Of a DNA stretch of 64,000 nucleotides, positions 6,804 to 10,539 are shown piece by piece. The notes below the pieces were generated by a model. That model had not been told where the DNA came from, did no database searches, and saw only the letters and a program-made list of their open reading frames with translations. The position numbers and the translations under genes were made by a program. Source of the DNA: Candidatus Heimdallarchaeota archaeon (GTDB lineage: Archaea > Asgardarchaeota > Heimdallarchaeia > Heimdallarchaeales > Heimdallarchaeaceae); NCBI GenBank assembly GCA_030603365.1, contig JAUVXV010000002.1, forward strand, positions 192,001-256,000, written 5' to 3'. Each line of letters starts with the position of its first letter. Position 1 is the stretch's first letter.

Positions 6804-8621
6804 TTAGTTTATATCTAATTTATCAATTTCTTGTTCAGTGGGAACTCCGTATTCATCTAGTCCTCGTTTTTCATATAACAATTGAAGTGATTTTTCAAAA
6901 TCCTCTTCGCTGACAAAAGCTTTACTTCCTTCCGCTCTACCTGAAGGTAAAGGTTCATTCATGAATCTATTGGGAAGAACATCATAATCAATTGGTTTGT
7001 AATTATCGAACTGGTTGATATTGAAAAGACGTTTAGTTATCCAGATTCTTTGGGCTATTTCCATCATCTCTTCTTTAGATACATCTCTGTCCCATAAGGC
7101 AGATAGTATTTTCTGTCTATCTTCAAATGAGAATCCTCCATCAATTACATAGGAGAAGGTACAAACTACTAGACAATCTATTAGAGATTTGTAATCCTGT
7201 TGTTCAATCAGGGAATCAATTACATCTAATGCGCTCTTATCTGGTACTTCAGCTGTCGCTGGCCATCCTCTCAAATGTGAAGCTCCAACAGCAGCTGTAG
7301 CATAACTCAGTCCAAGACCAAGTTTTCCTCTGGGATCCCAAGCAGCAAAAGGAAGTCCTTTGACATGTATGGCTAAGTTCTCTATTCCCCATTCTTCTGC
7401 AGCTTGAGCTACACCCTTAGCTAATACATTTCCGAATCCTTTTCTATATGCAATCATTTCAATGATTTCTAATAATTTCTCTCCGTTTCCGAATTTCACT
7501 CCTTCAAACTCTGGTCCTTTGAGTAAACCTTTCTCAACTGCTTCCATAGTCATTGCTATTGCACTTCCTGTTGATATTGTATCAAGTCCTAGTTGGTTGC
7601 AGAGATAGTTAGCATGAGAAATAATATCGTTATCACTAATTCCTACATTTCCTCCAAACATAGCAAGAGTTTCGTATTCAGGTCGAGCTATTTCTATCTT
7701 GTCTTCAGGAACCCAGTCAAAGTCTTTTGCATCCAAAGTAGATGAGCATCCTATTGGACAACCGTAACATGGTCTCTTAATTGCTGTATAAGCTTCTGCC
7801 ATATCAGGACCACCTATTTTTTTGTAATCTTCATATTCTCCTGATTGCCAATTACGTGTTGGATATTGGCTCATCTCATTAGCGAAACTAACAGCACTGC
7901 TAGTTCCGTAGGTAAACATTTCTGAACCAGAATCTTTTGCTTTCTTAGCTCTTGCCATTATATCTTTTCGAATCTCATCTATTTTCTCTTGATTTCCATT
8001 AGCAGGTTTTTCTGAACCTTTTACTGCTAAAGCTTTGAGATTCTTTGATCCAAAGACAGCTCCTAATCCTCCCCTGCCGGGATTGCGGTGACTATCAGCT
8101 GTTGGGCAAGATATAGCAACAAGATTTTCTCCAGCTGGACCAATACAAATAACCCTCATTCTGGGTTCGTTTTCATCTTCTTTTATCTTATCTTCAGTTT
8201 CATAAGAGAGTTTACCCCAAAGATGTTTTGCGTCCTTGATTTCAATGGCATCGTCTTTGATTGATACATAAACTGGATTAGATGATTTACCTTCCAGAAT
8301 AATAAGGTCATATCCTGCAAATCTGATTTCGGGTCCCAAAAATCCTCCTACATGACTATCTAGAAAATGGTTTGTGAGAGGACTCTTAGTACCTACTGCA
8401 TAACGTCCAGTGATTGGTATGCGTGTACCTGATGCTGGACCTGGTGCGATTATGATCTTATTTTCAGGTGATAAGGGATCAATTTTTTTCTGAAGTTCTT
8501 TGTATAGATAATATGAAATAAATCCAGTTCCACCTATATATTTCTTGTAAACGTCTTCTGGAATTTCTTCTTTTTTCATTGTTCTGTTTGAAAGATTTAT
8601 CCTTAGAAGTTTATTTCTCAT
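6804..8621 (-). CDS. aor: Tungsten-containing aldehyde:ferredoxin oxidoreductase (AOR family), second paralogue
   Basis: Same motif set as 1222-3039: CYGCPIGC, PEYET, GLDTISTG, ASHLRGWP. Confidence 0.93.
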   Translation of the reverse strand: MRNKLLRINLSNRTMKKEEIPEDVYKKYIGGTGFISYYLYKELQKKIDPLSPENKIIIAPGPASGTRIPITGRYAVGTKSPLTNHFLDSHVGGFLGPEIRFAGYDLIILEGKSSNPVYVSIKDDAIEIKDAKHLWGKLSYETEDKIKEDENEPRMRVICIGPAGENLVAISCPTADSHRNPGRGGLGAVFGSKNLKALAVKGSEKPANGNQEKIDEIRKDIMARAKKAKDSGSEMFTYGTSSAVSFANEMSQYPTRNWQSGEYEDYKKIGGPDMAEAYTAIKRPCYGCPIGCSSTLDAKDFDWVPEDKIEIARPEYETLAMFGGNVGISDNDIISHANYLCNQLGLDTISTGSAIAMTMEAVEKGLLKGPEFEGVKFGNGEKLLEIIEMIAYRKGFGNVLAKGVAQAAEEWGIENLAIHVKGLPFAAWDPRGKLGLGLSYATAAVGASHLRGWPATAEVPDKSALDVIDSLIEQQDYKSLIDCLVVCTFSYVIDGGFSFEDRQKILSALWDRDVSKEEMMEIAQRIWITKRLFNINQFDNYKPIDYDVLPNRFMNEPLPSGRAEGSKAFVSEEDFEKSLQLLYEKRGLDEYGVPTEQEIDKLDIN

Positions 8622-8739
8622 AGATTTCTTATCTATTACACGCTTTTAAGTATTATCAAGAAAAAAAAAGAAGGAGAGTTTTCACTCTCTTTCTATTTGT
8701 CATTTAAACAAGGTGAAATATTAGTTAGGTATTAGAACG

Positions 8740-9089
8740 CACGTTATGAAACTTGGTTAAACTTACCAGAAGGCGCCTAACCGTCGTTTAAGTGGGTCCC
8801 CTCACGTGCGTTGAGGGGAAGTTATGCAGATTTAGGTCTGCGATAGTTGGTGGAGCATCAGCACCGAGCTAGCTAGGCCCCCTGGTTCAAGGTAGATTTA
8901 CTGAGGGACAACCACTTGTGTAGTTGCGAACCAGATACATGCTGAAACGCACACCTTCTAACTTGCTATGTGTACTTTCATATATAAACTCGTAGAAAAA
9001 TCGCTCAGGGTTACTCGCTCCTGCTACTCTTTTTACCCGGGTAGAGAGCGTATGGCAAGATCAGTCAACTTTCCTGCTCTCAGTGGACG
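8740..9089. mobile_element. 350-bp non-coding, GC-rich, structured insertion flanked by an ACG direct repeat; non-autonomous element of unknown family
   Basis: ACG at 8737-8739 and 9090-9092; removal restores the host frame; many hairpins; no terminal inverted repeats; no credible ORF. Confidence 0.7.
8768..8959 (-). ncRNA. Putative ~190-nt structured RNA inside the insertion
   Basis: Minus-strand TTTATATA (8988-8981) lies ~22 nt upstream of AGAAGGUGU (8959-8951), which pairs with GCGCCUUCU (8776-8768). Internal stems: CUGGUUC/GAACCAG, GCAACUAC/GUGGUUGU, GCAGA/UCUGC, UCCCCUCA/UGAGGGGA. G-U pairs favour the minus strand. Confidence 0.5.
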
Positions 9090-9379
9090 ACGGTTCCAAG
9101 AAAACCATTTGTCGTACCATCAATATTCCATAGAATACCAAACAGTTTCATTCCTTCAAAATCCTCAAAGCCTTGTAATGTAAACATCCCATAAAGCATT
9201 CCACCTACTTTCTTAGCCATGATAGTTCCAGTGAAATATCCTGATAGATCTCCCCATGTGATGTAAAACCAAGTTTGTCCATTGACTACAAGAACTCCTG
9301 TTGCTAGGTCTATTTTAGCATTGAACAATGATTTTGTCCATCCAGTTATTATATCGTCTCCAATAGTTCCACCTAATAA

Positions 9380-10157
9380 GTGCATAGACCAGTAATCTTT
9401 GATATGAAGTATGTGGAACCTGCAATTACTACACATGGATATTCCATAGTTAACGATATTCCGTTTACTGCTAATGTTTCTGACACTTTAGTAAAATCAT
9501 GTGGCCCTTTTGTGCTTGATACTTTTAATGTCGCAGAACAGACAATAAAGCTTATTCCCAATCCTTACTGGAATAATATCACCGCATCAAGCGGAGAAGA
9601 TGCTAAATTAGAAGAATTACAATTACACTATATCCCAGATATAAATGAGGCATTATCAAAACTAGTCAATGATGAAGTTGATATTGTAACAGATGAAGTA
9701 TGGAGACTTAAACCATTCACTCAGAATTTAAACATAACCTATCTAAATAGTTTAGCTGGGATAAGTGGACTAATTCTTAACACGAATATTCTCAATCAAA
9801 TTGAAGTAAATATGCTTCACCCAATAATTGGAACAGGTGAACTAACTCCAGAAGGAACAGCTGAGGCAGCACTTAACATAAGAAAAGCTATTAGTCATGC
9901 AATTCCCCGACAAACTATCATTGATAATGAATTTGATGGTATAGGAACTCCTAGTATTTCTCCAGTTCCTGATTCATGTGCAGGATTTGATTCAAGTCTA
10001 ACTCCTTATATTTATGACATAGATTTAGCAAAATCATATCTTGAACTAGCAGAATATACTAGTGAGAAAGCATCATTTAGTGGTTATATCATTAATTGTA
10101 TTTAGTTTACTAGGATTATCTAGTATAGTATCCCTTATACGAAAAAGGAAGAAATAA
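9380..10157 (+). pseudogene. C-terminal fragment of an ABC peptide/nickel solute-binding protein (family 5), 5'-truncated and frameshifted
   Basis: GPF..., NPYW, IRKAISHAIPRQTII, YDIDLAKSYLE motifs; N-terminal half and signal peptide are absent. After ~10085 another frame encodes VISLIVFSLLGLSSIVSLIRKRKK* (TM anchor, stop 10155-10157). Confidence 0.75.
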
Positions 10158-10242
10158 ACTCTGATTTCCTCTTTTTTTCTCTTCTATTCAAAATTGTATT
10201 TAGACGAAAATTAAAAATAGTTCAAGATTTCTTATTACTTAG

Positions 10243-10539
10243 ATGATTTACGAAACCGTTGCCCCTTGTAAGAAGAAGAAGGGATTTGAAGGTATCCCGG
10301 AAGAGTTTCATGAAGTTCCTTTAGGGGACCTGAAGAATGAGCTCCTTCATAATCTTAAATCTTACAAATTATTGCGTGAAACTAGAGTTATGCTAATCTT
10401 TCTTGATGACGAAAAAGGCAATAAAATTTCCATCTATCCTTCTTGTCGTGTTTTTGTTCATGGAGATATACAAGAAGATGAAGCGAAAGAGATTATCAAC
10501 AAAATCGGTAAATCAATAGAGAAAATTACTGCTTCTTAG
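10243..10539 (+). CDS. Small hypothetical protein (98 aa)
   Basis: Clean ORF with normal composition, filling the gap between neighbouring genes. Confidence 0.7.
   Translation: MIYETVAPCKKKKGFEGIPEEFHEVPLGDLKNELLHNLKSYKLLRETRVMLIFLDDEKGNKISIYPSCRVFVHGDIQEDEAKEIINKIGKSIEKITAS

Follow-up and report, generated by a model that had tools for sequence, protein, structure and literature searches.

In the window, the 64,000-nt stretch of DNA analysed here, a 353-bp insertion interrupts a host gene at its last codons, in sense orientation. The sense strand of the element is the minus strand of the window, as fixed by residual tnpB codons on that strand; its left end (LE) lies at 9092 and its right end (RE) at 8737. 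The features at the insertion site are as follows.

8740–9092, minus strand: gene-less insertion of 353 bp, very probably an IS607-family derivative; coincides with a precise gap in the orthologous locus of the sister genome G018
8737–8739, minus strand: right-end copy of a 3-bp core (CGT in element sense, ACG on the plus strand); the same triplet occurs at the LE and in the empty site
9090–9094, minus strand: target motif ACCGT in element sense, with host bases at 9093–9094; seen in the G018 empty site and at 24 of 25 left-end junctions
9093–9416, minus strand: host gene fragment lacking its 5' part, corresponding to residues 57–165 of the 168-aa homologues in a secreted-protein family
8717–8736, minus strand: host flank and putative guide of an omega RNA, by the TnpB/omega-RNA architecture (bioRxiv 10.1101/2023.11.20.567912)

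An earlier note on this DNA had delimited the segment as 350 bp (8740–9089) plus one ACG triplet, and had predicted that its removal restores a host C-terminus GTVLIPN*. Both proposals were borne out. At the G018 locus both flanks align with the window around a single exact 353-bp gap, which supplies the uninterrupted allele that the note had suggested looking for. Homologues of the host protein terminate in ..TLLIPN* or ..TVLIHN*, and the displaced last host codons (LIPN*) lie at 8721–8736. The note's description of a GC-rich element with neither terminal inverted repeats (TIRs) nor a transposase was equally accurate: the G+C content of the insertion is 49–53% versus 26–40% in the flanks, a tip-to-tip comparison found no terminal inverted repeat, and none of its ORFs is related to a transposase.

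Two side observations concern the host locus itself. A 241-aa piece of a family-5 solute-binding protein (9380–10105, plus strand; Pfam positions 106–282 of 368) abuts the 5'-truncated host gene (here 9093–9436, minus strand) near ~9400, which suggests an older rearrangement or deletion breakpoint beside the insertion. In G018 (contig 365, L063), the uninterrupted host orthologue carries an in-frame TGA for the window Trp (..HIKDY*SMHLL..), which points to a sequencing error or to a gene that is a pseudogene in G018 as well.

Insertion boundaries and target motif

The boundary of the insertion can be slid within the 3-bp ACG found at both ends (8737–8739 and 9090–9092). Written in element sense, the empty site of G018 reads GGAAC-CGT-CCTAATAC and the occupied site of the window GGAAC-CGT-(element)-CGT-TCTAATAC, the sole base difference between them being a synonymous change in a Val codon. 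The CGT core is thus present at both element ends and once in the G018 target, with no target-site duplication. This is the outcome expected of a serine-recombinase crossover within a short identical core, and the 3 bp are presumed to be the crossover region of the serine transposase. A core variant, ACA (TGT in element sense), is found at RE and LE together in all three copies that carry it.

The two bases AC that precede the core at the LE (GT at 9093–9094) were constant in 24 of 25 LE junctions, and the next base was variable. The AC pair is already present in the G018 empty site and therefore belongs to the host; its constancy indicates that the element inserts at ACCGT. By analogy with related systems, we presume that ACCGT also serves as the TAM (plus core) of the TnpB-like protein described below. 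Across the 3.65 Mb of the genome G000, ACCGT and its complement total only 1302 occurrences, about one third of a rough expectation from base composition. A second empty site was found for another copy (C1), unoccupied in relatives, with divergence too great for base-precise boundaries.

The earlier note had centred on two internal 9-mers, each an exact reverse complement of one junction of the insertion. This was confirmed for both: ACGTGCGTT (8804–8812) is the exact reverse complement of 8736–8744, and AACCGTCGT (8779–8787) that of 9087–9095. Each match is expected about 0.001 times by chance (0.0012 and 0.0014 exact interior matches, respectively), and the words appeared in 32 and 50 of 20000 shuffles. 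The junctions that the 9-mers mirror extend into host sequence, and here the note was right in part. The outermost host bases, 8736 and 9095, vary freely among copies, but the GT at 9093–9094 is not arbitrary, being part of the target motif.

Copies and autonomous relatives

Four contig ends in the element's own genome carry stretches of the insertion, namely its first 177 nt and its last 139 nt, a sign that the assembly is interrupted within additional copies. Its first 85 nt recur at five more sites; of these, three are 2.7-kb elements (G000: contig 14, 340819–343551, L009; contig 16, 51276–53990, L010, and 152732–155460, L011). Each of these full-length copies has two ORFs, on the strand opposite to the plus strand of the window. 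The 85-nt right end of the insertion is 92–95% identical in the three, and a left end of ~45 nt is also common to them; the last 43 nt of the insertion are 81% identical to the LE of the contig-14 copy.

The shorter ORF (197 aa) contains MerR HTH and Resolvase domains (Pfam) and matches the NCBIfam equivalog transpos_IS607 (E 2e-49; 167.5 bits against a cutoff of 110). No IS110-type DEDD enzyme was found among the proteins of the full-length copies with Pfam or NCBIfam. The earlier note had suggested a search for further copies and for longer versions with a recombinase ORF; both exist, and the recombinase of the three 2.7-kb copies is an IS607 serine transposase (TnpA).

Gene-less copies fall into length classes of 257, 324–366 and 397–412 bp. 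Sister genomes also contain elements of ~2.1–2.3 kb (L056, L042, L052, L059 and L053) with tnpB present and tnpA absent, in which nothing separates the left end from the tnpB promoter block. These tnpB-only elements are likely the direct ancestors of the gene-less form.

A search with the RE turned up copies with other flanks within the element's own genome and across 21 of 24 sister genomes, frequently by the dozen, whereas 16 genomes belonging to other genera in this order had none. When a 22-nt RE word was compared with species-representative genomes, each of the 72 exact matches came from a MAG titled Candidatus Heimdallarchaeota or as an unnamed archaeon. Among the genomes searched, only one genus of Heimdallarchaeota has the element family. 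On metagenome contigs from cold seeps and sediments, RE depth was 20–100 times that of the flanks, and unrelated sequence (loose ends) starts at 8736/8737 and at 9095. Logan contigs from four metagenome runs yielded no contig bridging an empty site and no excision joint, and a circle-junction pattern (CAGT-N5-ACGCACGTTATGAAAC) had no match in JGI metagenome contigs.

The TnpB-like protein

The second ORF of the full-length copies encodes a TnpB-like protein of 622–650 aa, in which RuvC-I begins only ~430 aa in. The 622-aa form was matched to Cas12f/TnpB (PDB 8hr5) with E 3.5e-6 over RuvC-II, the zinc ribbon and RuvC-III, and the motifs GVDIN, IERL, a CxxC zinc ribbon and ..NAAxNIA are recognizable. 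Pfam and NCBIfam matches remained below family cutoffs. The RuvC-III motif is NTH-x-NAA, in which His takes the place of the usual Asp and x varies between D, F, K, I, S and A across the genus's intact copies. The scores below cutoff, the His substitution and the variable next residue together make cleavage by this protein uncertain. Asp-to-His TnpB clades have been described and are thought to be active (PMC10691335).

The insertion in the window keeps the last nine tnpB codons (FPSTHVRGP) and nothing more of either gene.

Right end and predicted omega-RNA scaffold

The RE is strongly conserved in every copy, full-length and gene-less alike. Lying on the tnpB strand, the conserved 85–90 nt extend over the stop codon of tnpB and the end of the element, and comprise the following features.

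8737–8826, minus strand: RE and omega-RNA core scaffold, 85–90 nt; 73 distinct copies with a mean column identity of 82%
8788–8820, minus strand: tnpB 3' remnant, last codons FPSTHVRGPT plus stop; 9 of 9 residues identical to the C-terminus of the C16 full-length copy
8798–8818, minus strand: nexus hairpin CCCCUCA/UGAGGGG with a 7-nt loop, ACGCACG; 98% of cells paired; overlaps the last tnpB codons
8805–8810, minus strand: predicted pseudoknot strand 1, the nexus loop and core of the 8804–8812 9-mer; pairs with 8738–8743
8738–8743, minus strand: predicted pseudoknot strand 2, the 3' end of the scaffold and last bases of the element; variants here are each matched by a loop change
8755–8782, minus strand: omega-RNA stem-loop 2, helix GGUUAG/UUAACC around a small variable hairpin; supported by covariation

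The first 9-mer, ACGTGCGTT, occupies the loop of an 8-bp hairpin, TCCCCTCA/TGAGGGGA (8797–8819). To assess covariation, pairs were counted on the element-sense strand of 73 distinct right ends, gathered from this and 21 sister genomes. The loop ACGCACG was paired with the terminal CGUGCG(U) in 93% of cells, and five of the seven pairs showed changes on both sides. Element end and loop varied in matched fashion (end given first, then loop): ACACACG occurs with CGTGTGT, ACGTACG with CGTACGT, ATGCACG with CGTGCAT and ACGCTCG with CGAGCGT, and one additional pair shifts from G-C to A-U. One-sided changes produce G.U pairs on the minus strand, where the plus strand would have A.C mismatches. None of 500 shuffles reached the covariation observed for nexus hairpin, pseudoknot and stem-loop 2 together, and the signal collapsed when partner columns were slid as a control. 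The outermost element pair, 8737/8811, is kept in only 44 of the 73 copies.

In TnpB and Cas12 guide RNAs the nexus loop pairs with the 3' end of the scaffold just before the guide; in IS607, the ends needed are of 40 and 60 bp, with a core dinucleotide and short inverted motifs (bioRxiv 10.1101/2023.11.20.567912). Read against this architecture, the complement between hairpin loop and left junction is, on the evidence of the sequence comparisons, a minus-strand TnpB omega-RNA pseudoknot, an intramolecular pairing predicted not to read host DNA. Since the nexus hairpin is almost invariant, we infer the pseudoknot topology, rather than a nested alternative, by analogy. The earlier note had taken this 9-mer for a guide reading the junction. 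What it covaries with is the element's own last bases; the single host base of the match, 8736, shows no covariation. A second AACGCAC word (8946–8952, compared with 8806–8812), close to where the RNA is predicted to begin, could act as a competitor for the nexus loop; it lacks conservation in other copies and is probably due to chance.

The second 9-mer lies in stem-loop 2, whose helix pairs 8777–8782 with 8755–8760. As RNA, the word reads ACGACGGUU (8787–8779) and supplies GGUU to the 5' strand of this helix. Pairing was retained in 96.8% of cells across the 73 right ends, with changes on both sides in three of six pairs, and 38 copies carry G.U pairs compatible with the minus strand only. 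The word itself is nearly invariant across copies, and the LE tip past ACGGT varies (CGTCC, GAGTG, TAGCA and others). A full 9/9 match occurs only where the LE ends in GGACGACGGT, namely in the window, in the contig-14 copy and in three copies of relatives, and no covariation between the word and the left-end tip was detected among the copies. With an invariant word and a variable tip, the match amounts to the five-base target motif plus a subfamily coincidence. The proposal that this 9-mer is a guide reading the right junction was not supported; its GGTT belongs to a covarying stem. At the DNA level, it may act as a TnpA-bound inverted copy of the LE junction. A helix proposed by RNAalifold (UUAAAC/GUUUAA) was rejected, having no compensatory change and shuffles that scored as well.

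Left end, probable promoter block and interior

On the minus strand, the element consists of an LE of ~40 bp, a promoter block, an interior of ~135 nt, the last tnpB codons and the RE of 85–90 nt. The parts upstream of the RE are listed here.

9053–9092, minus strand: left end, reading on the plus strand TGGCAAGAT..CAGT-N5-ACG; 43-nt match to the LE of the contig-14 copy
8974–9001, minus strand: promoter-like block with TTTATATA (8981–8988, minus strand); common to the region upstream of tnpB
8881–8935, minus strand: interior RNA domain of 55 nt with an outer helix UCUGGUUC/GAACCAGG; seven pairs changed on both sides

The LE motif, the promoter block, the 55-nt domain and the RE are common to the gene-less copies. 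A motif of the CTTGCCA/TGGCAAG type lies ~30–40 bp from each tip and is inverted between LE and RE. The block GATTTTCTACGAGTTTATATA is found ~75 nt upstream of the tnpB ATG, both in full-length copies and in the 2.1-kb tnpB-only elements; from this position it is probably an archaeal promoter, pointing toward the RE.

The outer helix of the interior domain encloses an inner hairpin and a conserved single strand, UCCCUCAGU, and its G.U pairs fit the minus strand only. Single-sequence folding was unremarkable (z-scores of –0.2 and –1.6), comparative analysis alone being informative. The interior (8822–8960) showed no homology to the 3' part of tnpB, and blastx, blastn and nhmmer comparisons with the full-length copies returned only the promoter block and a weak 15-nt tnpB match (E ~0.6–0.8). 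This suggests that, upstream of the nexus, the gene-less form may have an RNA unlike the parental omega RNA. An Rfam scan of 7500–10500 on both strands, at E up to 1, detected no intron, housekeeping RNA, RAGATH-type or other family. The known RNA or intron identity that the earlier note thought Rfam might reveal was not forthcoming.

In the middle of tnpB, ~1.1 kb from the RE (about 1615–1645 of L009), a hairpin is followed by UCCCUCAGUUAGU (codons ..SVPQLV..), and the equivalent place in L010, L011, L056, L042, L059 and L053 has it too. It resembles the hairpin of the interior domain followed by UCCCUCAGU (window 8900–8915); the likeness could be due to homology, convergence or chance.

Alternative readings

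The exact internal complements of both junctions, improbable by chance, in an element with neither TIRs nor duplication had led the earlier note to propose a non-autonomous relative of IS110/IS1111, whose internal bridge or seek RNA would read donor and target junctions through the two 9-mers. This kinship did not hold up. The genes of the autonomous relatives specify an IS607 serine recombinase and a TnpB-like protein, with no IS110-type DEDD enzyme, and the internal words ignore the flanks: the first complement covaries with the terminal bases of the element rather than with host flanks, while the second is nearly invariant and has only the ACGGT target motif in common with most left ends. 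We consider a bridge-RNA element extremely improbable. A self-splicing intron or IStron-like RNA that cuts itself out of the host transcript, with its splice sites specified by the 9-mers as internal guides, would account for the sense orientation inside a host ORF and for the conserved structured RNA, and some IS607/IS605 elements do carry group I introns with splice sites coinciding with the transposon ends. However, no group I, group II or other Rfam family was matched at E up to 1, the full-length copies leave no room for an intron between LE and tnpA, and the RNA pairings observed match those of an omega RNA. Covariation is absent from the 'exon' bases, and the host gene is a 5'-truncated fragment, so that nothing would select for splicing. 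The note's suggestion of a new intron-like RNA is thus highly improbable as well.

A third possibility is that the complementary words are double-stranded DNA sites, inverted motifs bound by TnpA, and not RNA pairings at all. IS607 ends do contain short inverted motifs required for excision, the second 9-mer is an inverted repeat of the left-end junction, and the CTTGCCA-type motif is inverted between LE and RE. Against this, loop and terminus show five kinds of coordinated double change, a hallmark of base pairing; one-sided changes giving G.U pairs on a single strand also indicate pairing, and complementary variation would not be expected of a duplicated protein site. We regard this reading as unlikely overall, though less so for the second 9-mer.

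Proposed identity and mechanism

The insertion is very probably a gene-less (MITE-like) derivative of the IS607 family, abundant in one Heimdallarchaeota genus, that has retained the omega-RNA scaffold. It is an already known kind of element, neither a bridge-RNA element nor an intron. In layout it looks like a tnpB-only unit after deletion of the gene, with a promoter placed before a structured RNA of ~220 nt that ends at the guide position. The broader proposal of the earlier note, a non-autonomous RNA-guided element mobilised in trans, survives in part: the element is mobile, gene-less and TIR-less, has a short core and belongs to a guide-RNA family, but the internal segments are not guides. 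By analogy with the TnpB/omega-RNA architecture, the actual guide would be the host flank beyond 8737.

Drawing on the same analogy, mobilisation would proceed in trans. A transposase gene usable in this way lies elsewhere in the same genome, and the TnpA serine transposase of a full-length copy (e.g. on contig 14) would recognise both ends of the gene-less element. TnpA would excise it as a circle, giving the circle junction GGACGACGCACG and the donor joint GGAACCGT-TCTAATACC, and the circle would insert at ACCGT by crossover within the common CG(T) core, with no duplication. The RE would double as omega-RNA scaffold, its nexus loop forming the pseudoknot with CGUGCG(U), alongside the second stem-loop. 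If transcription, possibly from the promoter-like block, continued beyond 8737, the host flank would become part of the RNA as its guide, and this would direct the TnpB-like protein, if it is an active nuclease, to an emptied ACCGT site.

More tentatively, the gene-less element might be a stand-alone guide-RNA gene with its own promoter that parasitises or modulates the His-variant TnpB-like protein in trans, a possibility we hold to be doubtful. If true, the ~220-nt RNA would join the parental omega core to a covarying 5' domain (8881–8935) that is not part of the tnpB 3' region, and could, for example, secure its own homing or act as a decoy.

The assignment turns what appeared to be a new RNA-guided or self-splicing class into a known kind of element, and allows several similar-looking calls of 'structured orphan RNA' in these genomes to be struck off. 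It also provides a cleanly delimited IS607 system in Heimdall-group archaea, with ends, CG(T) core, ACCGT motif and an omega-RNA core whose pseudoknot and stem-loop are backed by compensatory changes among natural copies. IS607 TnpBs are reportedly linked to the origin of the eukaryotic Fanzor nucleases, which makes such a system in this group relevant. As a natural 'minimal' omega-RNA cassette for an unusual TnpB-like protein of 620–650 aa, the element offers a practical starting point for biochemistry.

Comparison with known systems

Bridge RNAs have two loops that read target and donor, and work with a DEDD recombinase. Like IS110/IS1111 elements, the insertion has no TIRs, recombines at a short core and encodes a structured non-coding RNA. 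It differs in that its complement forms an intramolecular pseudoknot, the enzyme of its relatives is a serine recombinase and the guide would lie outside the element. With IStrons, which combine a group I intron with IS605 or IS607, it has in common the sense orientation in a host gene and an RNA structure overlapping the ends; unlike in IStrons, no intron core was found with Rfam on either strand.

In PATEs, a Y1 transposase recognises subterminal hairpins and moves the element in single-stranded form. The window element resembles PATEs and gene-less IS200/IS605 derivatives in being short, ORF-less and multicopy, in its presumed mobilisation in trans and in keeping a guide-RNA scaffold at the RE. 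Its ends, in contrast, are those of a serine-recombinase element.

The closest likeness is to IS607, as in the Clostridium botulinum CboIStron and Helicobacter pylori IS607. The transposase of the relatives joins a MerR-type HTH to a resolvase domain, TIRs and duplication are absent, and a short core is present in both ends and in the target, with the target motif abutting the left end. The ends are of ~40–60 bp with short inverted motifs, here candidate TnpA-binding sites, and the tnpB stop and the right end fall within the omega RNA, whose pseudoknot, predicted in the present case, sits just before the guide. Core and target are CG(T) in ACCGT here versus GG in TGGG for the C. botulinum IS607 (bioRxiv 10.1101/2023.11.20.567912). 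Unlike CboIStron, the present element contains no group I intron, and unlike IS607 elements with tnpA and tnpB, the copy in the window has lost both genes. The system as a whole stands apart from known IS607 elements in its omega RNA, which has no Rfam match, in the TnpB-like protein associated with it (~620–650 aa, with His for Asp in RuvC-III) and in its Heimdall-group archaeal host.
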